From a bacterium (lineage in GTDB: Bacteria > Patescibacteriota > Minisyncoccia > UBA6257 > MFKM01), in NCBI GenBank assembly GCA_030693325.1, contig JAUYAV010000011.1:109603-173602 (forward strand): a DNA stretch of 64,000 nucleotides. Direction: 5' to 3'. Below are positions 10,802 to 52,750 of the stretch, in pieces; position 1 is the stretch's first letter; each line of letters begins with the position of its first letter. Below the pieces are notes generated by a model. The model made no database searches and was not told the origin of the DNA. It saw nothing but the letters and a program-made list of their open reading frames with translations. Both the position numbers and the translations under genes were made by a program.

Positions 10802-10937
10802 AACCAAACTTGTCTGAGAAAATATCCCGCAGGCGTCCAAAGATTGGTCTCCGCGAAGCGGAGTTTGGACGCCGAGGGAAAAGAAAATTTTGCCGCTGGA
10901 GCAAAATTATTCTGGTTTTCGAAGGCAAGTTTGGTTT
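10802..10937. ncRNA. Candidate structured ncRNA, copy A (unclassified family; strand unresolved)
   Basis: Ends pair over about 20 bp (ccaaacttgtctgagaaaat / attctggttttcgaaggcaagtttgg). Nested hairpins gcgtccaaa-[gattggt]-ctccgc-GAA-gcggag-tttggacgc and aattttgc-cgctgga-gcaaaatt. Homologous to 27727..27942 with compensatory stem replacements. The track ORFs 10771..11067 and 10778..10984 are spurious. Confidence 0.55.
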
Positions 10938-15146: not shown

Positions 15147-16049
15147 ATGGCCTCTCTTTACTCTCATCAAGAATCCAATATTCGCCGAACCTGGTTTTTG
15201 TTCACGGGATTTTTAATTGTCGTCATCGGCCTCGGCTGGTTTTTTTCATATATTTTTGACAGCTCGGCGATTCTAATTTTTGCCGTTATTTTCAGCGTAT
15301 TAATGTCGCTGATAAGTTATTGGCAGTCGGATAAAATCGTCCTGGCGATGGCGCGGGCAATTCCGGTTGAGAGAAAAGACAACCCCGAACTCTATAATAT
15401 CGTGGAAAACTTAGCCATCACCGCCGGCCTGCCTACTCCAAAAATATATTTAGTCAATGAAGCGTCGCCTAACGCTTTCGCTACCGGCCGCAATCCTCAA
15501 CACAGCGTGATTGCGGTCACTTCAGGATTGCTCGCTAAATTAAACCGCGCGGAGCTGGAAGGCGTTATCGCCCATGAATTATCCCATGTCGGCAACCGGG
15601 ATATTTTACTTTCAACCGCCGTGGTGGTCTTGGTCGGTTTTGTTTCCTTGATTTCAAATATGTTTATCCGTTCAATGTTTTGGAACCGGGGCGGGCGCCG
15701 AAACAATCGCAATGAAGGCGGAGGAGTCTTATTTTTAATAGGAATAATATTTGCGATCTTGGCGCCCATAGCCGCCGCTTTGATGCAACTGGCGATTTCC
15801 CGAAAAAGAGAATTCCTAGCCGATGCTTCCGGCTCTCTCCTGACCCGCTACCCGGAGGGCCTAGCCCAGGCTTTGGAAAAAATATCGCAAGACCCTACGC
15901 CGATGAAAATAGCCAACAACACCACTTCGCATCTCTGGATTGAAAATCCTTTCAAGGGCAAAACCCGGGAATCCTGGTTTACTAAGCTTTTTATGACCCA
16001 TCCACCAGTAAAGGAACGAATCAAGGCATTACGCGAGATGAGCGTTTAA
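15147..16049 (+). CDS. htpX: Zinc metalloprotease HtpX (M48)
   Basis: HELSHV zinc motif (IAHELSHVGNRD) and four TM segments; the LemA-HtpX pairing is common. Confidence 0.85.
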   Translation: MASLYSHQESNIRRTWFLFTGFLIVVIGLGWFFSYIFDSSAILIFAVIFSVLMSLISYWQSDKIVLAMARAIPVERKDNPELYNIVENLAITAGLPTPKIYLVNEASPNAFATGRNPQHSVIAVTSGLLAKLNRAELEGVIAHELSHVGNRDILLSTAVVVLVGFVSLISNMFIRSMFWNRGGRRNNRNEGGGVLFLIGIIFAILAPIAAALMQLAISRKREFLADASGSLLTRYPEGLAQALEKISQDPTPMKIANNTTSHLWIENPFKGKTRESWFTKLFMTHPPVKERIKALREMSV

Positions 16050-16054
16050 TATTT

Positions 16055-16128
16055 GCTCCGACTTTGTCGAGAATCTCCCGATTGTATCGAGGACTCTCGA
16101 CAAAGTCGGAGCTCAATGAAATCGGGAA
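16055..16128. repeat. Long hairpin module (17-bp stem gctccgactttgtcgag/ctcgacaaagtcggagc plus tail atgaaatcggga); a partial homologous copy lies at 33005..33044
   Basis: Perfect 17-bp inverted repeat with a roughly 24-nt loop, directly after the htpX stop. The 5' arm and 3' tail recur inside the comEC 5' region. Confidence 0.5.
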
Positions 16129-16159: not shown

Positions 16160-16201
16160 TTTACTATTGTAATTCCACGATCGTGGAATTACAATAGTAA
16201 A
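16160..16201. repeat. 42-bp perfect palindrome tttactattgtaattccacga|tcgtggaattacaatagtaaa (copy 1 of 3)
   Basis: Exact reverse-complement symmetry. Copies are identical at 33214..33255 and near-identical at 47652..47693. Confidence 0.8.
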
Positions 16202-16208
16202 TGGCAAA

Positions 16209-16889
16209 ATGAACAAAAAAATCAACCTTACAAATAAAATAAAAGATTTGGAGAAATTAGTGAGGCTGCAGGAAACGGAAATCAAGGAACTTTCTGCCTT
16301 AGCCGAAAGAGATACTTTAACCGAGCTCTATAATCGCCGGGGATTTATCCGGGAGGCGGAAAAATTTTTAAAAGAAATCAAGATATTAAAAAAGATTTCT
16401 GAAAAACGTAAAATTTCTTTCAAATATTTTTCGTTGATTTTTATTGATCTTGATAATTTTAAAATGATCAATAATGAATACGGCCATAAATTCGGCGATA
16501 AAGTTTTAAAAACCGCGGCTAAAATCTTTCGGGATTCGGTAAGAGATTTGGATATTGTCGGCCGCTGGGGCGGCGATGAATTTGTCATCGGTTTGGCCGG
16601 CGCCAACGAAAAAACCGCTTACGGCATCGCGGAAAAATTAAAGAATAAGCTTAAAACGGTAAAAATAAAAAACAGACAAATGAGCGCCAGCTTCGGAATT
16701 GTAGGCTATCATAAAAAAACCCAGTTCCACGGCCTTTCTTCCGCGTCTTCTAAAAAACGTCAGGCGGAAGAAAAAGTTTTAAACCAACTCTACGAATTGA
16801 TTGAAAGAGCCGATATGACCATGTATGAAGCAAAAAAGAAAAAAGGCAAGGACTCGGTAGTTGTTTACAACAATAAAGACGTTATATAA
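16209..16889 (+). CDS. GGDEF-domain diguanylate cyclase with N-terminal coiled coil
   Basis: RGF...IFIDLDNFKMINNEYGHKFGDKVL...GRWGGDEFVIGLAG (GGDEF active-site motif). Confidence 0.8.
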   Translation: MNKKINLTNKIKDLEKLVRLQETEIKELSALAERDTLTELYNRRGFIREAEKFLKEIKILKKISEKRKISFKYFSLIFIDLDNFKMINNEYGHKFGDKVLKTAAKIFRDSVRDLDIVGRWGGDEFVIGLAGANEKTAYGIAEKLKNKLKTVKIKNRQMSASFGIVGYHKKTQFHGLSSASSKKRQAEEKVLNQLYELIERADMTMYEAKKKKGKDSVVVYNNKDVI

Positions 16890-16996: not shown

Positions 16997-17010
16997 CCAA
17001 TTTCTCTCTA

Positions 17011-17149
17011 TTGGCCCCGTTAGAAGTCTTTGGCAAAAAAATTTTCTATGAAAATTTTTTTGCTTCGCAATAGCGGGCTATAACTAAGAATAAAGCCTGT
17101 CTAAAATTAGCTTTATGCCACATAAAATCAGACTTCTAACGGGGTTGAC
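17011..17149. mobile_element. MITE-like internally deleted derivative of the GIY-YIG mini-element (15-bp terminal inverted repeats ccccgttagaagtct / agacttctaacgggg)
   Basis: Both ends are homologous to the ends of the 40615..40910 element (ctttggcRaaaaaRaatttt at the left; ccacataa..cag..ttctaacgggg at the right), with about 95 nt non-coding between. It sits 15 nt after the tRNA-Ser 3' end. Its right end ggggTTGACA supplies a -35 hexamer about 18 nt upstream of TAGTAT for the downstream gene. Confidence 0.6.
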
Positions 17150-27726: not shown

Positions 27727-27942
27727 AACCAAACTTGTCTGAGAAAATATTCCATAGCCAAGCGCCGTAGGACTTACGCAGTTGCCTTGAAGAATATCCC
27801 GCAGTCCCGACGGGCTTGGTTTCCGATGAAATCGGAACCGTCGGGACGAGGGAAAAGAAAATTTTGTCGCTGGAGCAAAATTATTCTGGTTCTGAAAGGC
27901 AATTGCGGAAGTCCTGCTTCTGTTTTCGAAGGCAAGTTTGGC
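27727..27942. ncRNA. Candidate structured ncRNA, copy B (same family as 10802..10937, about 80 nt of insertions)
   Basis: Same terminal helix (ccaaacttgtctgagaaaat / ttcgaaggcaagtttgg). Homologous hairpin gtcccgacgg-[gcttggt]-ttccgat-GAA-atcggaa-ccgtcgggac with entirely different but still complementary stem sequences. Conserved core gagggaaaagaaaattttgYcgctggagcaaaattattctggtt. Lies between the alaS terminator and the rpsI stop. Track ORFs 27697..27969, 27787..28041 and 27816..28037 are spurious. Confidence 0.55.
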
Positions 27943-31674: not shown

Positions 31675-33192
31675 TCAAGCCTTATTCCTCACATAAACAA
31701 TAACCCGAGTTAAGAGCAAATAATACAGCAAAATGCCCCAAAAATTAAGATTGAAATTAACCGGTGCCGCCATTTTGGCGAAAAAATTAATGATAAAAAT
31801 TTCGTAAGTTAAGAGCAGAGAAACCAGCCAGCCGGAAAGCAAGGCCAAATAATAGGAAAATAAATGAAAAAAACCGATTAAAAACCCGAAGGCCATGGTT
31901 AAAGGAATAGCTATTAAAATTAAAATATTGGAAATTAAGGCCAGGAGAGAAAAATTTCCGAAAGCGATAATCAAAATGGGAGCGGTCGCCAATTGGGCGG
32001 ATAAAGTCATTAAAAAATTTTCCCGCCAGGCGAAAAATCCCGGTTTATCGCCGAATCTCAATATTTTTTTCAGCGCCGGCCGGAGATAAATAATTCCCAA
32101 AACCGCCAGAAAAGAAAGCTGGAATCCGACATCAAAAACCAATGATTTCGGATTAAAAAGCGTAATCAAAAAAGCGGCCAAGACGATGCTGTTTCTCGGT
32201 TCATAAATCCGGCCCGCCAAATTAGCCAGCAAAACAATAAAACCCATAATCGTGGCCCTGACGGCCGAGGGGTCAAAACCGGTCATGGCCACAAAACCTA
32301 AAATAACTAAAATGGTTATTGCAAAAGTCATGGACTGCGGAAAAATAAAACCAATAGCCGCGGCTATCGCCACAACAATAATAGTGATGTTCTGACCAGA
32401 AAGAGCCGTTAAATGAGTGGTACCGCTCAAACTCATGGCCTGCTTGAAATCCTTGTCTAAATTTCCGCGCTCACCAAAAATCAAGCCGGCTAAAAGGGCG
32501 GCTTGATTGGGAGGCAAAACTTTCTGGTAAGAATCAATGATTGAGTGTTTAAAATTAAAAAGAGCTGATTTGATTTTTGAGCCCATCCCGGATTTTTCCA
32601 ATTTGGCTTCGGGGAAACCGGATAAACCGTTAATTTTTTCTTTGGCTAAATAATTAACATAAGAGCTGTCTATTTGACCAATAAACGAATCTGAAGGTTT
32701 CTCAATTTTTCCCTTGAATATCAACTCATCTCCATAATGAAACTTGGGATAAAGCATTAATTTAACCGAGATTCTGCCTCGGCGTGGTTCGCCAAGCTGA
32801 ACGGTCAAATTTTGAGTGTTAGAACTATATTGAGGATCGTCAACCACTAATCCGCTGAAATTTATTTCTTTATTAAAATCTATTTTAATGTCTTTGAATT
32901 TTGAATCGTCCCATTTGTAGTAGCCGGCGCCGAGAAGAATAAAAACAGAAATAATCGCCAAAATCACCCACATTTTAGTAGGAGGATTTGTAGATTCGGA
33001 TAAATTTGCTCCGACTTCGTCGAGAGTCCTCGATGGAATCGGGATAGTTTGGACGCGGTCTAAAAACAAAAAAATCGCCGCTAAAAGCATAGTGGCGACA
33101 ATAATAATTAGAAACCTAATCCCAAAGCTGGCGGCTAAAACTCCAATCAAAAAGAAAACAATACCAAAAAAGAAAATGTCGTAGGAATGCAT
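31675..33192 (-). CDS. comEC: ComEC/Rec2-family DNA-uptake channel protein (start uncertain; an alternative start MWVILAI lies at 32973)
   Basis: Polytopic protein with the competence-domain block LSGTTHLTALSGQNITIIVVAIAAAIGF. The predicted N-terminal 73 aa run through a repeat-module copy (33005..33044). Confidence 0.7.
   Translation of the reverse strand: MHSYDIFFFGIVFFLIGVLAASFGIRFLIIIVATMLLAAIFLFLDRVQTIPIPSRTLDEVGANLSESTNPPTKMWVILAIISVFILLGAGYYKWDDSKFKDIKIDFNKEINFSGLVVDDPQYSSNTQNLTVQLGEPRRGRISVKLMLYPKFHYGDELIFKGKIEKPSDSFIGQIDSSYVNYLAKEKINGLSGFPEAKLEKSGMGSKIKSALFNFKHSIIDSYQKVLPPNQAALLAGLIFGERGNLDKDFKQAMSLSGTTHLTALSGQNITIIVVAIAAAIGFIFPQSMTFAITILVILGFVAMTGFDPSAVRATIMGFIVLLANLAGRIYEPRNSIVLAAFLITLFNPKSLVFDVGFQLSFLAVLGIIYLRPALKKILRFGDKPGFFAWRENFLMTLSAQLATAPILIIAFGNFSLLALISNILILIAIPLTMAFGFLIGFFHLFSYYLALLSGWLVSLLLTYEIFIINFFAKMAAPVNFNLNFWGILLYYLLLTRVIVYVRNKA
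33005..33044. repeat. Partial copy of the 16055..16128 hairpin module (5' arm tttgctccgacttcgtcgaga plus tail ggaatcggga, middle deleted), inside the annotated comEC 5' region
   Basis: Collinear with copy 1 and followed at 33214 by the same 42-bp palindrome, so the module order is the same as at 16.1 kb. Confidence 0.5.
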
Positions 33193-33213: not shown

Positions 33214-33255
33214 TTTACTATTGTAATTCCACGATCGTGGAATTACAATAGTAAA
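33214..33255. repeat. 42-bp perfect palindrome (copy 2 of 3), 22 nt upstream of the annotated comEC start
   Basis: Identical to 16160..16201. Confidence 0.8.
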
Positions 33256-34440: not shown

Positions 34441-34557
34441 AAACCCTCAAAAATCAAGAAAATGACAAGCTTTTGAATCCTAGGGCCTATAGTAGAGGGG
34501 GCATAAAGGTCGCGGATAAATATTTCCGAAAAATAATTAAAAAACAATAAATAAATT

Positions 34558-35088
34558 ATGCTATATTTTAACCATGCAATCAGCAAAAACCTTAAGGAAA
34601 TTGGATGTAAAAACAGTAGCGGAAATTTTTGGAGAATAGTGGATAAATCCAATGAAAGGCCATATTATGAGCTTAGGGATTCCGGTGAGATTCCAGCTTT
34701 TTCTATTGATGATATTATTCTGAACGAAGAGAATGCAAAGAATATTTGGGGAATAAGAGAAGAAGCGTGGATGCTGAAAGTACTGCAAATTTTCAACCTC
34801 GCAAGGTTGGCGGAAGATAAAGAAAAGACGATAAATAATTTTATGGCCAATGAGTACGGCTATGAATCAGAAACGCAAATGATTTCGCCAGAAAAATTTA
34901 AAAACTCACCAGTGAATTACGACACACTAGAGGGGTTTACGATGGTTCTTAAACGAAAATTGGGAAGTTTAGCAACAAGAGCGAGCCAAAAAGAGGGACA
35001 GCCAGAAGATGCGAATAGGTTTCTGGTAAAGTTTATAAACTATCCTAAAAAACAAGAGAATCCGCCTTCGGATATCCCGAAAGAATAG
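34558..35088 (+). CDS. Hypothetical protein (176 aa), AT-rich block
   Basis: No recognised motif. Confidence 0.4.
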   Translation: MLYFNHAISKNLKEIGCKNSSGNFWRIVDKSNERPYYELRDSGEIPAFSIDDIILNEENAKNIWGIREEAWMLKVLQIFNLARLAEDKEKTINNFMANEYGYESETQMISPEKFKNSPVNYDTLEGFTMVLKRKLGSLATRASQKEGQPEDANRFLVKFINYPKKQENPPSDIPKE

Positions 35089-35136
35089 GAAAAATAATTA
35101 ATAAAATAGTCGCTTAAATCTTAAATTAAAAAATCT

Positions 35137-35379
35137 ATGAAAGAAAAAATTAAAAAAATTCTAATAAAGTACTGGAAGATAATTTCAATATTTCTAATAG
35201 TACTTGTATTATTTTATTGGTTGCAGATAAGACCATCACAGACTTATTCGTATTGTCACGAATCTGCCCAAAAAAAAGCCATAGAAGTTTGTTCTTATTG
35301 TGGCAATAATAAATTCGAAGTCGCCACGTACGAATCGTATTACAAACAATGTTTAAGGTCTAAGGGATTTAATAAATAA
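35137..35379 (+). CDS. Hypothetical small membrane protein with Cys pairs (80 aa)
   Basis: N-terminal TM, then CHESAQKKAIEVCSYCGNN. Confidence 0.4.
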   Translation: MKEKIKKILIKYWKIISIFLIVLVLFYWLQIRPSQTYSYCHESAQKKAIEVCSYCGNNKFEVATYESYYKQCLRSKGFNK

Positions 35380-35407
35380 ACCTATAAAGAAAAATAAATA
35401 AAATATT

Positions 35408-35869
35408 ATGAATCAGATTGATTTTGAGAATCAAATAAAAATTGCGATTTCTAATTTTATATATTTACATCACTTTCTTTTAGAAAAAGATGTGAACGAA
35501 CGCTCAATCACACATAAATTAGCCGAATGCTTAACACCATTATTCCCCGAATGGGATATTGATTGCGAATATAATCGCGTCGGAGACAAACTATACAACC
35601 CCAAAAAAATTGGTTTATTTCCCGAACCCGTAAGTAGCGATGATGGAAAAGCCGTGACTATTTATCCTGACATTATCATCCATCACAGAGGAAAAATTGG
35701 ACTAGACAATAATTTGGCGGTTATTGAATTAAAAAAGAACCCAAATAAAAAACAAAGCGATAAAGACATTGATAAAATAAGAAAGATTAAAAAAGAGTTA
35801 GAATATCAAATCGGAATATTTCTAAAATGCTCTATAGAAGATATAATCCCGATTTATTTTATCAACTAA
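35408..35869 (+). CDS. Hypothetical protein with putative PD-(D/E)xK nuclease signature
   Basis: TIYPDIIIHHRG ...(about 15 aa)... LAVIELKK resembles a PD...(E)xK restriction-endonuclease-fold core. Weak, single-sequence inference. Confidence 0.35.
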   Translation: MNQIDFENQIKIAISNFIYLHHFLLEKDVNERSITHKLAECLTPLFPEWDIDCEYNRVGDKLYNPKKIGLFPEPVSSDDGKAVTIYPDIIIHHRGKIGLDNNLAVIELKKNPNKKQSDKDIDKIRKIKKELEYQIGIFLKCSIEDIIPIYFIN

Positions 35870-36099
35870 AAGAGTAGAAAATATTTTCGCAACCAGCCTG
35901 TTGAAATGAGGTCATAAATTACCGAGTGAGGAGGAAGAAGTAGAAAAATATCGCTGTTTGAATCCCGAAGCGAAGCCCCGCTTAGCGGGGCGAAGCGGAG
36001 GTTGAGTTCGATATTTTTCGTCAACTTCTGACGACGAACGAGAATAATTTATCCGAATGGAAATGGCTGGCGGAAAAAAGATTTTCTACGATACCAACC

Positions 36100-36672
36100 T
36101 TAGGCCTTTTCAATTCTTTCCGCATATTCCCCTGTCTGGGTGTTTATTCTGATAGTATCCCCTTCTTCAATAAAAAGCGGAACAAGAATTTTGGCGCCGG
36201 TTTCAATGGTGACCGGCTTGTTGCCGCCCTGCGCCGTGTCGCCGCGGATAGAAGGCGGCGCTTCCAACACTTTGAAATCAACTTTAATCGGCAATTCAAT
36301 GCTAAGAATCTTATCCTGGAATTTCAGAGAGACAATTTCTAAATTGGGTTTTAAAAAATTGGTAATTTCATCGCCCAGCTCTTCTTTATTGAAAGAAAAA
36401 CGATTTTTAGGATTGTCAGTTTCATTAAACCAATAAATTCCGCGGCTTTCATAAAGAAAACGCGATTTCATTTTTTCAATTTCAGCTTCTTCAAAACTGT
36501 CGGCCGGCTTGAAATTCCGGCTGAAAAGCTGGCCGGTCTGAAGATTTTTTATTTTGGTCTGGACGCTGGAGCCGCCGCGACCCATGTGTAAATGCTTAAC
36601 CTCTGAAACCACAAAAGGACTTCCGTCGATTACGATAAAACTCCCGGTTTTCAAATCATTAATGGAAAGCAT
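36100..36672 (-). CDS. efp: Elongation factor P
   Basis: MLSINDLKTGSFIVIDGSPFVVSEVKHLHMGRGGSSVQTKIKNL..., three OB-domain EF-P. Confidence 0.92.
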   Translation of the reverse strand: MLSINDLKTGSFIVIDGSPFVVSEVKHLHMGRGGSSVQTKIKNLQTGQLFSRNFKPADSFEEAEIEKMKSRFLYESRGIYWFNETDNPKNRFSFNKEELGDEITNFLKPNLEIVSLKFQDKILSIELPIKVDFKVLEAPPSIRGDTAQGGNKPVTIETGAKILVPLFIEEGDTIRINTQTGEYAERIEKA

Positions 36673-40614: not shown

Positions 40615-40910
40615 GTCAACCCCGTTAGAAACCTTTGGCGAAAAAGAATTTTAGGCGATTTTTTAAGTATCTTCTACCCATTCCCGATTTAAGATATTTT
40701 TCTCTGGCTCGAGCATCTTGTTTATTTAAAGAAACCTCACAATAAATAAGCTTCCAGGGTATACCATATTTTGTAGATTTATTCTTGCCTGAATTATGCC
40801 TTAAAATTCTTTTTCGCAAATCCTTGGTTGAGCCAATATACCAATGCCCCTTTTGATTTTGTAAGACATAGACGTACCACATAAGCAGGTTTCTAACGGG
40901 GTCAACCCCG
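40615..40910. mobile_element. Compact GIY-YIG mini-element (about 300 bp) bounded by terminal inverted repeats gtcaaccccgttagaaacctttggc / ggtttctaacggggtcaaccccg
   Basis: 13-bp perfect TIR core ccccgttagaaac/gtttctaacgggg. The GIY-YIG ORF fills the element and its stop codon lies inside the left IR. The right IR overlaps the stop of the upstream CaCA gene. The deleted derivative is at 17011..17149. Confidence 0.6.
40625..40882 (-). CDS. GIY-YIG nuclease family protein (about 85 aa; the track ORF extends to 40933 through the right IR)
   Basis: VYVLQNQKGHWYIGSTKDLRKRILRHN...ARAREKYLKS matches the GIY-YIG motif pattern (GIY...YIG...R...E). Confidence 0.7.
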   Translation of the reverse strand: MWYVYVLQNQKGHWYIGSTKDLRKRILRHNSGKNKSTKYGIPWKLIYCEVSLNKQDARAREKYLKSGMGRRYLKNRLKFFFAKGF

Positions 40911-41867
40911 TAAAAATAATGCGGCCAAAACAAAAGCGATATAAATCAAAATAAGAAAAAAGGCCTCTCTTTTAGTGATTTGGCGGTCAGTGCGGACAAA
41001 AAAGAAGAAAAAGAGAGCGGAAATCATCACAAAAAATCCGGCAACCGCAAGGGGCGCAAAATTCAAAATTTTAATTGGAGAAATCAAAGCCACTGTTCCC
41101 AAAATTAGAGTTGCCGGCACTATCACCGCTCCCATCAAATCTCCCAAAATCATCCAGGTCTCGTCTCTTTTGGCCGAAACAACGGCAAAATAAATTTCGG
41201 GCAAGGCGCTGCCAAAACCGGTAATTAAAAGACCAATTAAAACTAAGGGCACCTTAAAAGTTAAAGCAAAAAATTGGGCCGAGGCCACAATCCCCTGAGC
41301 CGAAATCACCAAAAGAATTATTCCTAAAACTAATTTCCCTATATCTTTAAAAAAAGTTTTTAATTCTTTAACGAAAGGTTTTTTATGTTCATCATAAATT
41401 TTAGTGAATCTTTCTTTTTTGCTAAAAAGCCAGAAGAGATAAAAAACAAAAAAGGCAATCAGTAATAGCCCATCTATCCTTGAGAGTTCGCCGTCAAAAA
41501 TTAAAAACAAAGGCAAAAGCGCCGCGGCGATGGTGAAAATTGAAGTGGTTTGCACCGTTCGGCTTTCGGCCGGAATGGATTTTCCTTTAGCAAACAAAAC
41601 CGCCAAAGCCACGGCCAAAGTCAAAGCAATTATATTATTCCCGACAACATCGCCGAAAGAGAGTTGTGGGGTCCCTTTTAAAGCCGAGGTCACCCCGATA
41701 AAAAGGTTGGGTAAGGAAGCGGCAAAAGCCATCACGAAAAAGGCGACGACAAATTCCCGCCAACCCAGGAATCTGGCCATTCTCATTAATCCTCCAACAA
41801 CCCACTCACCGGAGAAATAAAGCAAAACGCAGCAAATCGCAAAAATTAAAATAAAAAACCAAATCAT
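40902..41867 (-). CDS. Na+/Ca2+ exchanger family (CaCA) membrane protein
   Basis: Two alpha-repeat motifs GDVVGNNIIALTLAVAL and GFGSALPEIYFAVVSAK. Confidence 0.75.
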   Translation of the reverse strand: MIWFFILIFAICCVLLYFSGEWVVGGLMRMARFLGWREFVVAFFVMAFAASLPNLFIGVTSALKGTPQLSFGDVVGNNIIALTLAVALAVLFAKGKSIPAESRTVQTTSIFTIAAALLPLFLIFDGELSRIDGLLLIAFFVFYLFWLFSKKERFTKIYDEHKKPFVKELKTFFKDIGKLVLGIILLVISAQGIVASAQFFALTFKVPLVLIGLLITGFGSALPEIYFAVVSAKRDETWMILGDLMGAVIVPATLILGTVALISPIKILNFAPLAVAGFFVMISALFFFFFVRTDRQITKREAFFLILIYIAFVLAALFLRG

Positions 41868-47468: not shown

Positions 47469-47521
47469 ATTTCTGTTTTAATTTAAAATTCGCCTTTTAT
47501 GTCAAAATTACACTACTATTG

Positions 47522-47594
47522 TGCGCCCAGAGGGATTCGAACCCCCGACCATCTCCTTAAAAGGGAGCTGCTCTACCAACTGAGCTATGGGCGC
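47522..47594 (-). tRNA. tRNA-Lys (anticodon UUU), no encoded CCA
   Basis: Reverse complement GCGCCCA-UA-GCUC-AGUUGGUA-GAGC-A-GCUCC-CUUUUAA-GGAGA-UGGUC-GGGGG-UUCGAAU-CCCUC-UGGGCGC-A; cloverleaf intact apart from one 27:43 mismatch. Confidence 0.88.
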
Positions 47595-47651
47595 ATGAGC
47601 TACGGACGAATTTTTATATTATACACTACCGTTTTAATTTTCAAAATATAA

Positions 47652-47693
47652 TTTACTATTGTAATTCTGCGATCGTGGAATTACAATAGTAAA
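47652..47693. repeat. 42-bp palindrome (copy 3 of 3; 2 mismatches in the left arm), 58 nt from tRNA-Lys
   Basis: tttactattgtaattctgcgatcgtggaattacaatagtaaa. Confidence 0.75.
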
Positions 47694-47786
47694 TTGTTTT
47701 CATCCGGTTCTGCTTGGTTTTCCTTACCAACAAACAAAAATAGTTTGAAGTATTGATTTTTTATAGATATTTTCGAGATGAAGCTT

Positions 47787-48269
47787 TCATAGTTCCATTC
47801 TTAAGGTTTCCGGCAAATATTTATTCTTTGGATATTTTTTTATTCCAGCTTTAACAAATCCGCATTTCTCGTAAGCTTTGATGGCTCTTAAATTCGTGGG
47901 GCGAACCTCAAGAAAAATTTTTGAAATGCCGAGTTGTTCCGCTTTTTTTATAAGTATTTGAATAGTTTTTGTGCCATAACCTTTATTCCAATATTTTTTC
48001 TCTCCGATAACGATTTGGGTCTCATGCCATTTATTATTTCTTTTTACCAACGAAATATGGCCGATAGCTTTTTTATTTAAAGTTAATATAAAGTTGTAAT
48101 CGGTTTTACTATTTAAAATATTCAGAAAATATTTTTCCACTTTTTTGTCCGAGATTGAATCTAAAATACCGCTTGTTAATTTAAGCAGTTCCTTATTTCT
48201 CCACCATTTTGCGAAATATTTTTTATCTGTTTTTTTAATTTTTCTTAAAAAGAATTTGGGCATATACAA
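47787..48269 (-). CDS. GNAT family N-acetyltransferase
   Basis: Acetyl-CoA motif block ...QIVIGEKKYWNKGYGTKTIQILIKKAEQLGISKIFLEV. Confidence 0.75.
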   Translation of the reverse strand: MYMPKFFLRKIKKTDKKYFAKWWRNKELLKLTSGILDSISDKKVEKYFLNILNSKTDYNFILTLNKKAIGHISLVKRNNKWHETQIVIGEKKYWNKGYGTKTIQILIKKAEQLGISKIFLEVRPTNLRAIKAYEKCGFVKAGIKKYPKNKYLPETLRMEL

Positions 48270-48429
48270 TTATTATATAAGTTTTTTCACGATATTTTTG
48301 AATATTTTTTTACTATGGATAGCTATGTTTTACAATTTATATTGTGGGAATATGGTTTTTAATTTTGTTTCAATGAAAAACAAATCAACTATCCCTTCCA
48401 TTTGTTTATAATTCAATTTTAATTTTACT

Positions 48430-48717
48430 CTACTCGCCTTTACGATTAGACTCGTATTCAATTTTTTCAATCATGCCGTGGGGAATATATAAAAAAGTAG
48501 CCTTTCTTTTTTTCTGCTCGCGTGAGTCCCTTTTTCTGTCATCCACAGTGATAGTGCGCGGATTCTGTACTATCACCCATTCCGCACCTTCTTTAAATAG
48601 AATACCCTCTGTTACTTTACGCGTTGGTTTCAGTTCTAATTTTTGAGGCACTGATGAAGCAGAATAAATAACCGCGTCTATCCAATGCACTTTCACATTC
48701 TTTAATTTATTCTCCAT
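48430..48717 (-). CDS. Hypothetical small protein (95 aa), tandem paralogue of 48707..49006
   Basis: Shares with its neighbour the pattern V(H/W)W.DA.YS...L.P......G..........N......D......I...P....V.K (KVHWIDAVIYSASS versus AVWWHDAAYSYEE). Confidence 0.45.
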   Translation of the reverse strand: MENKLKNVKVHWIDAVIYSASSVPQKLELKPTRKVTEGILFKEGAEWVIVQNPRTITVDDRKRDSREQKKRKATFLYIPHGMIEKIEYESNRKGE

Positions 48718-49006
48718 GGAGTAATCCTATCCTTTTAAACTTCACGACTGTTTTTTGAGGAATTACAAGTCCATCAATTGGCCAAATAGTGTCATCTGTT
48801 TCATCATAGCTGACGTTCATTGCTATGTTCATATGATCGTCTGTTGCCACCATCACGAATCCTACCGCAAGCTGGGCGTGTGGTAATTCGTCCGGTAATT
48901 TTTCCTCATAGGAATAAGCTGCGTCATGCCACCACACCGCGCACACGGGCGGATTCTTTTTCGGTTTTTTGGATTTTTCACTTGAAAAACTTAATTGCTT
49001 TTCCAT
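48707..49006 (-). CDS. Hypothetical small protein (99 aa), paralogue of 48430..48717
   Basis: See the paralogue. The two ORFs overlap by 11 nt in different frames. Confidence 0.45.
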   Translation of the reverse strand: MEKQLSFSSEKSKKPKKNPPVCAVWWHDAAYSYEEKLPDELPHAQLAVGFVMVATDDHMNIAMNVSYDETDDTIWPIDGLVIPQKTVVKFKRIGLLHGE

Positions 49007-49085
49007 GTATTAAATAATAAACTTTGCGCCATTGAAAAGCAAAAGGAGGATTGTTTTCACAACCCTCCTTGTCAATCAATGAACT

Positions 49086-49262
49086 TTATTACTTATTTGC
49101 CGGAATCTCCACCGTCATTATCTCCGTGACGATTTTCCGGAACTCCTTGGTCTTTTGCCTCCGCCGCATCGTTACGAGCCGTATGAAACGCTTCGCTCGT
49201 CTTTTTCATACTATCGCCCGTTTCTCTTGCGGTATCTTTCTCTGTCCACTTATTAGCCATTT
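49086..49262 (-). CDS. Hypothetical hydrophilic 58-aa protein (not in the ORF track)
   Basis: Strong SD ggaggtgaggg before the ATG; MANKWTEKDTARETGDSMKKTSEAFHTARNDAAEAKDQGVPENRHGDNDGGDSGK*. Confidence 0.45.
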
Positions 49263-49283
49263 CCCTCACCTCCTCGTTGTTTT

Positions 49284-49844
49284 TTATTTCAGTTTATTCA
49301 GGAATTCTGATATTCTCGGGATGTTCTCTCTGAACAGAGCATAACGGATTACATCATACCTCGCGCCGTTAAACAGTCGTTGCTTTTTGAATTTACCTTC
49401 CTCTATAAAACCTCCTCTTAGAGCGGCTGAAATAGCCTCTCGGTTGTATTCATACATTTCCATATAAATTTTGAAAAGCTTAAACTTTTCAAAAAGATAC
49501 ATCAGGAAAAGCGCGTCTGCTTCAGCGCCATATCCTCTTTTACGAAATCCATCGGCAATGAAAGTGGTGATAAACGCATATCCATCAACGCGTTTGTAAT
49601 CATAGGAATAAATCGTACCGATAGGCTCGCCGTCGAATTTTCGCTCAATCATAAACTGAAGATGCCTATCTCGTTCAAAATCCCTTTTAAGCTCCGCAAC
49701 AAATTCATTGCAATTCGTTGCGCTTCTTCTATGAGAGCAATTCTGAAGAAATTGTTGATCATTTCTCCACTTAAAAAGCGTAGCTGCGTTATTGCTTGTT
49801 AATGGACGCAATTTAATATGACGAGTTTCAAGAGAATAATCCAT
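49284..49844 (-). CDS. GNAT family N-acetyltransferase (RimJ/RimL-like); start MDYSLE at 49844 preceded by aaggagg
   Basis: ITTFIADGFRKRGYGAEADALFLMYLFEKFKLFKIYMEMYEYNREAISAALRGGF. Confidence 0.75.
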   Translation of the reverse strand: MDYSLETRHIKLRPLTSNNAATLFKWRNDQQFLQNCSHRRSATNCNEFVAELKRDFERDRHLQFMIERKFDGEPIGTIYSYDYKRVDGYAFITTFIADGFRKRGYGAEADALFLMYLFEKFKLFKIYMEMYEYNREAISAALRGGFIEEGKFKKQRLFNGARYDVIRYALFRENIPRISEFLNKLK

Positions 49845-49995
49845 CTGATTGCCTCCTTTCTTTTTCAATTTTTAATGTTCAATCCAATATTTATACTGAT
49901 ACTAATATCTAATAAATGAATTATTTTGTCAAATTTATATTCAATCCTCAACCTTTTAAAATCGGTCAGAGATTCCGAATTTCCCGTTATTTTAT

Positions 49996-51783
49996 CTATC
50001 TGTTTTTCAAGATAGTGAAAAAGGCCTCCTGCGGAATATCCACTGTTCCGATTCTTTTCAGTTTCTCTTTGCCGGCTTTTTGTTTTTTCCAAAGTTTTTG
50101 TTTGCGCGTTCTGTCGCCACCGTGCAGTTTGGCGATTACATTTTTTTTCATCGCCGGCACGGTTTCGCGGCTGATAATCTGGGCGCCGACAGTCGCCTGA
50201 ATGGCAATTTCAAACATCTGCCGCGGAATTACTTTTTTCAATTCAATGGCCAATCTTTTTCCTTCGGAAGAAATTTCGTCCTTGGGAATTATAAATGACA
50301 TCGCCTCAACTCTTTTTCCGGCAATCACAATATCCATTTTTACTAAATCGCCGCAACGGTAATCAATAAAATAATAGTTCAAAGAAGCATAGCCGGCGCT
50401 TATATTTTTCAAGCCGTTGTAAAAATTATCCAAAAAAGAAGACAGCGGCATTTCATAAAACAGAATCACCTCTTCGGCCAGATAATCGGTTTTTTTGTAA
50501 ATGCCCCGGAAATTTTTAACCAAATCCATTATCGGGCTGAGATATTTAACCGGAGAAAATATTTCCAAGCTTACCCAGGGTTCCTGAATTTCTTTTATTT
50601 CTCCGGCATCGGGAAATTCTTGGGGCGAATGAATAAATTTTTCTTTATCGTCATTTAAAACCACTTTGTAAGAAACGCTGGGCGCGGTGATAATCAAATT
50701 CAGATTATATTCCCTTTCCAATCTTTCCTTGATTATTTCCATGTGAAGCATCCCCAGAAATCCGCAGCGGAAACCGAAACCCAAATCGGAAAAAACTTCC
50801 GACTTGAAAGTGAAAGCGGCGTCGTTTAAAGACAATTTTTCCAAGGCCTCTTTGAATTTCAGATAATCGCTGGCGTCAACGCAGTAAAAACTGGCGAAAA
50901 CCATCGGCTGGGGTTCTTTATATCCTTTGAGCGGCTCAACCTTGGGTTCGGAAATTTTGGAAACAGTGTCGCCCACCCGGCAATCCCGAATGCCTTTAAA
51001 ACCGGTGATAATATAACCCGCCTCACCAGCTGATAAATTTTCTTTCGGAAAAAAATCCGGTTTGAAAATCCCGACATCCAAAACCGTGGAAATTTCGCCG
51101 GTGCCCAAAAGTTTTATTTCCTCGCCTTTTTTTATTTGGCCGTCAAAAATTCTGACAAAAGCGATGACGCCGCGGTGCCGGTCAAAAAGAGAATCAAAAA
51201 CCAAAGCCCGCAAAGGCTTATCGACGTCTCCGACCGGCGCCGGAATTTTTCTGACAATCGCTTCCAAAACTTTTTCAACATTAATTCCTGATTTGGCGGA
51301 AATAAAAATCACTTCCTTTTCTTCCACGCCGACCAGTTCCGCTAATTCCCGTCCGACTTTTTCCAATTGAGCATTGGGTAAATCTATTTTGTTGACCACC
51401 GGAATAATCACCAAGCCCTCATGTTTGGCTAAATAATAATTCGCCAGGGTCTGCGCTTGGATTCCCTGGGTGGCGTCGCAAAGCAAAATCGCGCCTTCGC
51501 AGGCATTTAAACTTCGGGAAACCTCATAAGAAAAATCAACGTGGCCGGGAGTATCCACCAAATTCAAAATATATTTCAAACCTTCAAATTCAAAATCCAT
51601 CCGGCAAGGATGGAGCTTGATGGTTATCCCCCGCTCTCGTTCCAAAGACATCCGGTCAAGATATTGCGCCTGCTGCAATTTTTCTTTAGATATGGTTTTG
51701 GTTATTTCCAAAAACCGGTCCGCCAAAGTGGACTTCCCGTGGTCTATGTGGGCCACGATGCAAAAATTTCTGATGTTTTTCAT
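49996..51783 (-). CDS. lepA: Elongation factor 4 (LepA)
   Basis: NFCIVAHIDHGKSTLADRFLE...DTPGHVDFSYEVSRSL, LepA-specific C-terminal domain. Confidence 0.95.
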   Translation of the reverse strand: MKNIRNFCIVAHIDHGKSTLADRFLEITKTISKEKLQQAQYLDRMSLERERGITIKLHPCRMDFEFEGLKYILNLVDTPGHVDFSYEVSRSLNACEGAILLCDATQGIQAQTLANYYLAKHEGLVIIPVVNKIDLPNAQLEKVGRELAELVGVEEKEVIFISAKSGINVEKVLEAIVRKIPAPVGDVDKPLRALVFDSLFDRHRGVIAFVRIFDGQIKKGEEIKLLGTGEISTVLDVGIFKPDFFPKENLSAGEAGYIITGFKGIRDCRVGDTVSKISEPKVEPLKGYKEPQPMVFASFYCVDASDYLKFKEALEKLSLNDAAFTFKSEVFSDLGFGFRCGFLGMLHMEIIKERLEREYNLNLIITAPSVSYKVVLNDDKEKFIHSPQEFPDAGEIKEIQEPWVSLEIFSPVKYLSPIMDLVKNFRGIYKKTDYLAEEVILFYEMPLSSFLDNFYNGLKNISAGYASLNYYFIDYRCGDLVKMDIVIAGKRVEAMSFIIPKDEISSEGKRLAIELKKVIPRQMFEIAIQATVGAQIISRETVPAMKKNVIAKLHGGDRTRKQKLWKKQKAGKEKLKRIGTVDIPQEAFFTILKNR

Positions 51784-52448: not shown

Positions 52449-52750
52449 TTCCGACGTAGCTCAGTGGTAGAGCGACTCCCTGTAAATTTAAAATTGCAGC
52501 TTTCCCGAGTAATCGGGATTGAAAAACGAGGTGAATTCGGGGAAACCCTATAAAAGGGCAATCCCGAGCCAAGCCCCGACTTAACGTCGAGGAAGGTGTA
52601 GAGACTATCCCGAAAGGGAGTACTCCAAATAAAATTGGGGGAAGCGCCTCGCACCCTCTAAAAAAGAGGGTGATGATATAGTCCGTCCCCAATGGAAACT
52701 TTGGGATAAACGTAAGGAGACGGTCGTAGGTTCGAATCCTACCGTCGGAG
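52449..52750 (+). tRNA. tRNA-Asn (anticodon GUU) interrupted by a group I intron between anticodon-loop positions 35 and 36
   Basis: Exons: UCCGACG-UA-GCUC-AGUGGUA-GAGC-G-ACUCC-CUGU | UAA-GGAGA-CGGUC-GUAGG-UUCGAAU-CCUAC-CGUCGGA-G. The spliced anticodon loop CUGUUAA is the canonical tRNA-Asn loop. The 5' exon ends in U and can pair with an intron GCAG guide; the intron ends in G. Track ORFs 52420..52692 and 52433..52654 are spurious. Confidence 0.8.
52483..52712 (+). ncRNA. Group I self-splicing intron (230 nt, no ORF) within tRNA-Asn
   Basis: Conserved core elements: P-like AAAUUGCAGC, R-like GUGUAGAGACUAUCC (P7 5' strand), S-like GAUGAUAUAGUCCGUCC (P7 3' strand / P9.0). Size and anticodon-loop location resemble the compact bacterial tRNA introns (Anabaena tRNA-Leu, Azoarcus tRNA-Ile). 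Confidence 0.8.

Follow-up and report, generated by a model that had tools for sequence, protein, structure and literature searches.

The 42-bp palindrome TTTACTATTGTAATTCCACGATCGTGGAATTACAATAGTAAA, which occurs three times in the window (the whole 64,000-nucleotide stretch of DNA analysed here), belongs to a conserved and previously undescribed family of cis-elements, and is best supported as a PaaX-type operator, of long-dyad layout, that has become dispersed in a REP-like manner. Related 42-bp palindromes always bracket a gene for a PaaX-like protein, and are therefore most likely the binding site of that protein. On balance, we think that the 42-mer is probably an operator-type site of this protein that became amplified genome-wide in one clade. 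Throughout, the dispersed 42-mer is called type C, and the sites that bracket the PaaX-like gene are called type R; sequences from relatives carry L numbers.

The first-pass annotation of the window had described the palindrome as exactly self-complementary and present at three places, and both statements were borne out:
16160..16201, no strand assigned: palindrome copy 1, type C, 42/42 with 0 mismatches, between htpX and a GGDEF gene
33214..33255, no strand assigned: palindrome copy 2, type C, 42/42 with 0 mismatches, between mnmA and comEC
47652..47693, no strand assigned: palindrome copy 3, 40/42, between a GNAT gene and tRNA-Lys

The mismatches in copy 3 are adjacent transitions (CA to TG at 47668-47669), which give its left arm the triplet CTG instead of CCA. 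All three copies lie in short spacers between co-directional genes. Copy 1 is flanked by htpX (15147-16049, +) and the GGDEF gene (16209-16889, +), whose ATG is 7 nt downstream of the palindrome. Copy 2 follows the mnmA stop (33262) by 6 nt and precedes the comEC ATG (33192) by 21 nt, both genes being on the minus strand. Copy 3 does lie near tRNA-Lys, as previously noted, at 57 nt upstream of tRNA-Lys(UUU) (47521-47594, -) and 93 nt past the GNAT gene. The chance expectation for the 42-mer was 0 matches (100 shuffles), and when the whole window was searched with a covariance model of the family, without filters, no members beyond copies 1 to 3 were revealed. No solitary half-sites were found, and no Rfam family matched at the palindromes.

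Outside the window, type C was found in a small group of related genomes. A scan of a single genome from each species, in which the arms were held constant and the 12-bp core was left open, yielded 51 loci. Those with a CGATCG centre all came from four Patescibacteria metagenome-assembled genomes (MAGs): Jorgensenbacteria RIFCSPLOWO2_12_FULL_42_11 (MFKM), Paceibacterota WB02no9_41_8 (JAVHOD), H52-bin014_1 (JBBTRS) and H32-bin045_1 (JBBTUZ). The rest were single hits with unrelated cores and were rejected as chance. Metagenomes, scanned for the 20-bp core with any arms, added 18 canonical copies, and a core match inside uvrC (L063), which showed no insertion, was also taken as chance. In total, type C occupies at least 46 distinct sites in at least five related Patescibacteria genomes, all of them intergenic. 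Its density is about 1 per 20 kb, with 3 copies in the 64-kb window. IMG/VR scans gave no viral match that would indicate a phage origin, and the phage-like contig L052/L070 carries the 20-bp core only. A literature search on CPR palindromic repeats or promoters returned nothing relevant and no description of the 42-bp element.

The sequence of type C is strongly conserved. Positions 4-15, 19-24 and 28-39 showed 5 changes in 1104 site-positions, and the triplets at 16-18/25-27 showed 24 in 276; the outermost three positions of each end are variable too. The triplets alternate between CCA/TGG and CTG/CAG, with hybrids and one fully compensated copy (L043). Coding DNA of the window genome is about 85-90% identical to that of JAVHOD, and about 75-83% identical to that of MFKM and JBBTRS. 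Orthologues of copy 1 are present in L025 (JAVHOD) and L065, those of copy 2 in L036/L087 (JAVHOD) and L082, and perfect orthologues of copy 3 in L011 (MFKM) and L021 (JBBTRS). Overall, orthologous type C positions occur upstream of tRNA-Lys, comEC, the GGDEF gene, ychF, tatD and a small ORF. At these orthologous sites the palindrome is identical over 42/42 positions, compared to 70-89% identity in the flanks, which have both substitutions and indels, and it is kept in about 85% of cross-species comparisons. The perfect repetition had been attributed to recent spread or strong constraint; since the orthologous copies are unchanged despite their diverged flanks, constraint is the better explanation, and recent spread finds no support.

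Three empty orthologous sites were found in cross-species comparisons, and these differ by 95-130 bp of unalignable spacer. Thus, neither a clean insertion signature nor a target duplication is visible at them. Nor did inspection of the flanks reveal the target duplications for which a check had been proposed: the consensus of the flanks, TAA|..|TTA, has mirror symmetry and lacks the direct repetition of a target duplication, and there is only a modest extension beyond this outer consensus.

GATC is strongly under-represented in the window and related loci (72 observed compared to 195 expected), as are TCGA and GGCC, which suggests restriction-modification pressure. GATC at the type C dyad is nevertheless retained in 46/46 sites, despite its genome-wide avoidance. 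The rarity of CGATCG outside the element was rejected as a special signal, because it follows from the genome-wide avoidance of GATC and TCGA. A different perfect palindrome, of 41 bp with a TGACGTC centre, is present on an MFKM-like contig (L054 12711-12751).

It had also been claimed that a hairpin module precedes the palindrome, in the same order, at two of its copies. This holds for copy 1, where the module is real, but its counterpart at 33.0 kb is not as described:
16053..16126, +: hairpin module with a 17-bp stem (fold z = -7.2), a window-specific insertion separate from the palindrome
33008..33044, -: one-armed fragment of the hairpin module in comEC, in frame, encoding IPIPSRTLDEVG

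The best alignment of the 33.0-kb fragment is to the reverse complement of one arm, over 37 nt at 92%. The fragment, which is within comEC and separated from the palindrome by 170 bp, is unable to form a hairpin (z = -1.0). The full module is missing from the orthologous spacers of the closest relative (L025) and of L065, and a second full copy was not found in about 0.5 Mb of related DNA. As the module is absent at the orthologous site in L025, we conclude that module and palindrome are independent.

The hydrophilic 'linker' seen earlier in the ComEC N-terminus is indeed a repeat fragment inserted in frame. An alignment of ComEC placed the IPIPSRTLDEVG insertion between membrane helices, in the window and JAVHOD only. 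The doubt that this linker had cast on the comEC start was not upheld. The long N-terminus is conserved in frame across four lineages, including the membrane helices N-terminal of the insertion. The alternative Met proposed before (MWVILAI) is Lys in 2/3 of the compared relatives (JAVHOD and L082) and has no counterpart in L085. Since it is not conserved, the long annotated start stands. The in-frame fragment can be likened to the palindromic-element insertions of Rickettsia, where such in-frame insertions are known.

Further features of the window lie apart from the palindromes. Immediately after a group I intron (52480-52705; Rfam RF00028, 83 bits) comes a tRNA-like 3' end (52713-52739), and as ARAGORN called no tRNA here, this is probably an intron-interrupted tRNA gene. 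A 56-nt direct repeat (10873-10928 and 27847-27902) is 93% identical over its two copies, 17 kb apart. The motif CCCCGTTAGAAG...TTTGGC... occurs after tRNA-Ser and at two other places (17010-17059, 40615-40664, 40901-40930). Compared to MFKM and JBBTRS, the window has an insertion of 2.2 kb between lepA and copy 3 (47751-50003), with genes for two GNAT acetyltransferases as well as two small ORFs.

The type C copies are found in 28 tandem, 7 divergent and 4 convergent gene contexts, about as random intergenic placement predicts. The genes beside them are unrelated housekeeping genes that do not form a coherent regulon, so type C was rejected as a regulon marker, and Pfam searches detected no transposase or transcription-factor genes adjoining the dispersed copies. 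Every copy has TTGTAA-N17-TACAAT on both strands, a 9/12 match to the sigma-70 consensus and a consensus match only. In the window, the relevant matches are:
16167..16195, +: sigma-70-like match in copy 1, TTGTAA-N17-TACAAT (9/12), reading into the GGDEF gene
33220..33248, -: sigma-70-like match in copy 2, TTGTAA-N17-TACAAT, reading into comEC
47658..47686, -: sigma-70-like match in copy 3, TTGTAA-N17-TACAAT, directed towards tRNA-Lys
47618..47625, -: extended -10 of tRNA-Lys, TGTATAAT, conserved in three genomes and downstream of the palindrome

The mirror-image match of copy 2, on the plus strand, would run antisense into mnmA. As tRNA-Lys has its own extended -10, the palindrome is not the sole promoter there. 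Among the sites that could be classified, about 90% have at least one gene or tRNA start in front of them, usually at 7-100 nt, and the distance is 7-8 nt in four unrelated genes (the GGDEF gene, an RF-like gene, tatD and a 185-aa ORF). Many copies begin 4-13 nt past a stop codon. An activator geometry was rejected, as the spacing from palindrome to downstream promoter varies between orthologs. At the L043/L049/L051 site, a canonical terminator precedes the element and a canonical TTGACA-N17-TAAAAT promoter follows it, so that it is probably untranscribed there.

We also made some observations on the genes that neighbour type C. In many genes (for example in L072, L055, L030 and L027), TATAAT or TAAAAT occurs only 6-13 nt before the start codon with no Shine-Dalgarno sequence. 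Very short leaders thus seem normal in this lineage, where mRNAs with such leaders, or with none, may be frequent. The release-factor-like (RF-like) protein (L013 5029-5781; PCRF + RF-1) starts 7 nt after the palindrome and is without the first ~100 PCRF positions (its Pfam match begins at profile position 100); L089 and L091 also have a short RF-like gene of this kind, close to the PaaX-like gene. Between the convergent genes gatB and miaA, the palindrome at L018 1104-1145 supplies the final four codons and the stop of miaA (TTT TTA CTA TTG TAA).

The link between the palindrome and a protein came from more distant relatives, whose contigs were retrieved via LepA homologs. In L085 (a 585-kb contig, LepA 73% identical), two diverged 42-bp palindromes of the form TTTACTAAAGTT-N5-ACGATCGT-N5-AACTTTAGTAAA bracket one gene, which encodes a protein of 197 aa. 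The type R architecture as a whole is TTTACTAAAGTT-N5-ACGNNCGT-N5-AACTTTAGTAAA, over 42 bp, and it brackets the PaaX-like gene in 6/6 lineages: L085, L087/L088, L089, L090, L091/L092 and L093+L082. L087/L088 is JAVHOD, which has the gene on the same contig as the comEC palindrome, and L091/L092 is from Wolfebacteria. In all six, one palindrome is 8-31 nt before the ATG and the second 0-53 nt past the stop. In lineages without the dispersed 42-mer, together with relatives lacking the gene, all ten family members are at the PaaX-like gene. This count covers L085, L089-L092 and L095 (about 103 kb), together with L083, L084 and L086 (about 65 kb), which have neither the gene nor any palindrome copy. 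By sequence prediction, a promoter (TTGACG-N18-TAAA(C/A)T) lies inside the upstream type R palindrome in 4/4 lineages.

Types C and R have the same length, the same ends (TTTACTA/TAGTAAA, giving the common outer boxes TTTACTA-N28-TAGTAAA) and the same centre (ACGNNCGT), and agree at 28/42 consensus positions. The site L093:901 (TTTACTAAACATAATTAACGATCGTTAATTATGTTTAGTAAA) is intermediate between them. In type R, positions 4-9 and 18-20 are invariant and the central dinucleotide is variable. Its 5-nt linkers have 12 sequences at 13 sites and are 77% complementary, with several sites having unpaired linkers. In JAVHOD, type C is unlike both type R sites at about one-third of positions and may therefore have a different reader. 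JAVHOD and the L082/L093 population were the only ones in which element and gene were seen together; going by the names of the homolog clusters, none could be assigned to MFKM, JBBTRS or JBBTUZ. In a genome of 59% GC (L095), the long palindromes on either side of a 48%-identical homolog are different ones, sharing a CAATTG centre; a 54-bp perfect palindrome with a GCAATTGC centre follows this distant homolog (L095 10833-10886).

Relatives carry the PaaX-like gene and its two type R palindromes between efp and mnmA. In the window this place is taken by unrelated sequence:
34441..36099, +: segment between mnmA and efp (efp at 36100-36672, -), with three unrelated ORFs that have no significant Pfam match

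A gene-free gap of about 340 bp is conserved 3' of the PaaX-like gene and its downstream palindrome (L087 1346-1652; L089-L092). It contains a tRNA in L089-L092 and, in JAVHOD, a TTGACA-N17-TAAAAT promoter and terminator unit, which could specify a small RNA or small ORF.

The bracketed protein combines a winged helix with a PaaX_M domain. The 197-aa protein of L085 matched PaaX_M (PF20803) with E = 1e-16 and 61.2 bits, against a cut-off of 24, and PF20803 was found in all 98 homolog clusters, which are all from Patescibacteria where named. Its N-terminal winged helix gave weak Pfam matches to PadR/HTH families (E = 0.007-0.03, below cut-off). An AF2 model, calculated for the JAVHOD protein, had a mean pLDDT of 76.8, rising to >90 over residues 120-190 in the C-terminal domain, with a helix-wing topology at residues 55-111 for which Foldseek found PadR, MarR and RosR matches at a probability of about 1.0. 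The best PDB match of the model was E. coli PaaX (8a39, E = 1.8e-4), followed by 3l09, Rv0674, PadR/MarR regulators and Cas2. The protein ends after PaaX_M and is missing PaaX_C, it scored 27.7 bits with the PaaX equivalog model TIGR02277 (cut-off 264.55), and there are no paa genes near its gene. The Cas2 model passed its cut-off only over beta1-alpha1, D130 is invariant, and neither Cas1 nor a CRISPR array was present at any of seven loci. Therefore, with no PaaX_C, a low equivalog score and no Cas1 or array, we conclude that the protein would act like a PaaX-type winged-helix dimer, and that it is not a PaaX ortholog and probably not a CRISPR Cas2.

How would such a protein use the palindrome? 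E. coli PaaX, which has an N-terminal winged helix and a dimerisation motif, binds TGATTC(N27)GAATCA and represses its own promoter, Px, by hindering RNA polymerase (PMC9493321). Modelled on PaaX at its site, the PaaX-like dimer would contact TTTACTA and TAGTAAA, the outer boxes, with one winged helix each at a separation of about 34-35 bp, and its dimerisation domains would cover the conserved ACGNNCGT centre. In the proposed ancestral state, the gene for the protein is flanked by two type R sites, of which the one upstream covers the predicted promoter and would allow autorepression. In the clade that includes the window, the variant type C may then have been copied into dozens of intergenic spacers. 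As type C has TTGTAA-N17-TACAAT on both strands, occupancy by the same protein would shut or block a two-way promoter. Of the three candidates originally put forward (a recombinase or resolvase site, an operator for a dimeric regulator, and a REP/BIME-like element), the operator is the one favoured by the bracketing in 6/6 lineages, the overlap with a predicted promoter and the long-dyad layout of PaaX.

Several observations count against an operator. No PaaX-like homolog is present in the window and its 9-kb extension, and at efp-mnmA the gene and its type R pair have been replaced, yet the type C copies are intact. The four sites between convergent genes are in places where promoter control makes no sense. 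The same 20-bp core occurs with other arms, without TTTACTA, in L057 and L061/64/79. The genes beside type C make up no coherent regulon, and the protein is missing PaaX_C and falls far short of the PaaX equivalog cut-off. Finally, the 77% complementarity of the type R linkers could reflect selection for a hairpin. The symmetric variants and complementary variable linkers can be explained by template switching, without such selection: in Ripley's model and later E. coli work, template switching during replication reportedly turns quasi-palindromes perfect.

The alternative that survives best, which we still regard as fairly unlikely, is a pair similar to REP elements and RAYTs, with the repeats made, moved or maintained by the bracketed gene, the Cas2-like domain acting as a nuclease and regulation being secondary or absent. 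As in RAYTs, a single-copy syntenic gene has its repeats on either side; the copy number of type C differs several-fold among related genomes, its dispersal is clade-specific, and decayed, partial and tandem copies exist (L059, L078, L091). The near-random intergenic placement, including the copy that overlaps a gene end in L018, the match to Cas2 over beta1-alpha1 and the invariant D130 fit this reading as well. However, no Y1_Tnp (HUH/Y1) transposase was found among the examined neighbour genes, the bracketed gene itself being wHTH + PaaX_M, and PaaX_M normally serves for dimerisation in a genuine repressor. Neither a target duplication nor a clean filled/empty site was seen, and copying to new sites does not explain why orthologous copies are unchanged over long divergence. 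As for the REP/BIME-like element suggested initially, its defining features (a RAYT, GTAG or clusters) fail here, and what may remain is a REP-like life history. A bolder proposal is that the winged-helix/Cas2-like protein and the 42-bp palindromes form an undescribed protein-repeat partnership, a REP-RAYT analogue on a Cas2/PaaX scaffold, in which the protein makes or maintains its own sites and the dispersed sites serve as genome-wide transcription punctuation. We consider this unlikely.

Distinctly unlikely, in our view, is that the palindrome acts as an RNA or single-strand hairpin, with its 20-bp stem serving within operons as a terminator or attenuator, a stabiliser of mRNA ends or an RNase III site. 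A perfect palindrome gives identical RNA in both orientations, and this one folds strongly (-27 kcal/mol, z = -8.4). Across the family, two-sided changes were found in 14/19 pairs with 93% of cells paired, and both the fully compensated variant and the linker covariation are as expected for a hairpin, as are the many copies just after stop codons, some with U-rich tails. Pairing does not account for the invariance of the arm sequence itself across species, and pairing is imperfect in the transcribed strand of copy 3, which bears A-C mismatches, and in the unpaired linkers of several type R sites. Seven sites are between divergent genes, and the L043/L049/L051 element is probably not transcribed. 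An intrinsic terminator was rejected, as the stem is 29% GC and the oriented flanks have no consistent T-run; ordinary A-tract/GC-stem/T-tract terminators of unique sequence are present in these genomes.

A simple two-way sigma-70 promoter cassette that no dedicated protein binds would fit the hexamers on both strands, the placement of most sites in front of gene starts with a spike at 7-8 nt, and the short-leader mRNAs that seem common in this lineage. It is very unlikely, since the invariant spacer, centre and ends are not required of a promoter, and neither is perfect symmetry at tandem sites, whose antisense half would serve no purpose. In addition, several downstream genes have their own conserved promoters, convergent sites exist, and the hexamer positions differ in type R.

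Least probable is a recombination site, a DNA-uptake sequence or a parS/Noc-type chromosome-organising site: the dyad symmetry with a central AT, the hybrid CCA/CTG half-sites as possible crossover products and the resemblance of the core half TTCCACG to a parS half-site are outweighed by the lack of an adjacent recombinase, of solitary or coding half-sites and of any canonical parS in the window. The recombinase or resolvase site first envisaged is unlikely, given that synteny is kept on both flanks in about 85% of cross-species comparisons. A parS/ParB centromere (16-bp TGTTNCACGTGAAACA-type) had no match at <=3 mismatches, and the 42-mer core has 4 extra central bp, which puts the spacing off by 4 bp. 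Uptake sequences (DUS/USS) occur at about 1 per kb and also in coding DNA, and were rejected for intergenic copies at the density seen here. DnaA-box clusters were absent.

The operator reading matters because of where the element occurs. Patescibacteria (CPR) are ultra-small bacteria with tiny genomes and very few recognisable regulators, and to our knowledge almost no cis-elements have been experimentally defined in them. A defined 42-bp site and a candidate partner (PF20803, annotated as hypothetical or mis-named Cas2) provide a testable regulator-operator pair, whose architecture is defined in terms of outer boxes, centre and autoregulatory setting. It is unusual for an operator-like site to be amplified, in one clade, to dozens of housekeeping spacers and to be identical across species. 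What this amplification could reveal is a circuit for global control within a reduced genome, or else a new route by which binding sites spread. Annotation is also corrected, in that CRISPR Cas2 is probably the wrong name for the PF20803 proteins of this family and the annotated comEC start can be kept.

Among known systems, the Correia elements of Neisseria and promoter-carrying MITEs are likewise small palindromic intergenic repeats, which can provide outward promoter hexamers, fold into an RNA hairpin and extend over gene ends. In contrast, the element described here is much shorter (42 bp), with no sequence between its inverted repeats, no TA or TTAA target duplication and no clean insertion polymorphism found. 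It resembles REP/REPIN-RAYT systems in that the repeat is short, palindromic and intergenic, one 'master' sequence dominates, repeats flank a gene that is single-copy and inherited vertically, and copy number varies between relatives. However, REPs are imperfect, 20-40 bp long and number hundreds per genome, whereas the element here is a perfect 42 bp, numbers dozens and is conserved across species; its copies are solitary, with no HUH/Y1 transposase, GTAG head, clusters or doublets.

The protein resembles Cas2 in its C-terminal ferredoxin-like beta-alpha-beta-beta-alpha-beta fold with the beta1 'FDI...QxSVW' signature, and some databases label the family Cas2. It differs in that the loci seen have no Cas1, array or repeat-spacer organisation, and in that the domain, like that of PaaX, carries a fused winged helix. 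The likeness to E. coli PaaX extends to a winged helix with a PaaX_M (Cas2-like) dimerisation domain, a long dyad of ~40 bp read via short outer inverted boxes, and an operator that overlaps the regulator's promoter, here by prediction. The 197-aa protein lacks the PaaX_C ligand (phenylacetyl-CoA) domain of E. coli PaaX and has no phenylacetate genes nearby. Its site is also different, being a near-perfect palindrome with a conserved centre that is present on both sides of the gene, and of which one variant is dispersed to dozens of unrelated intergenic regions.
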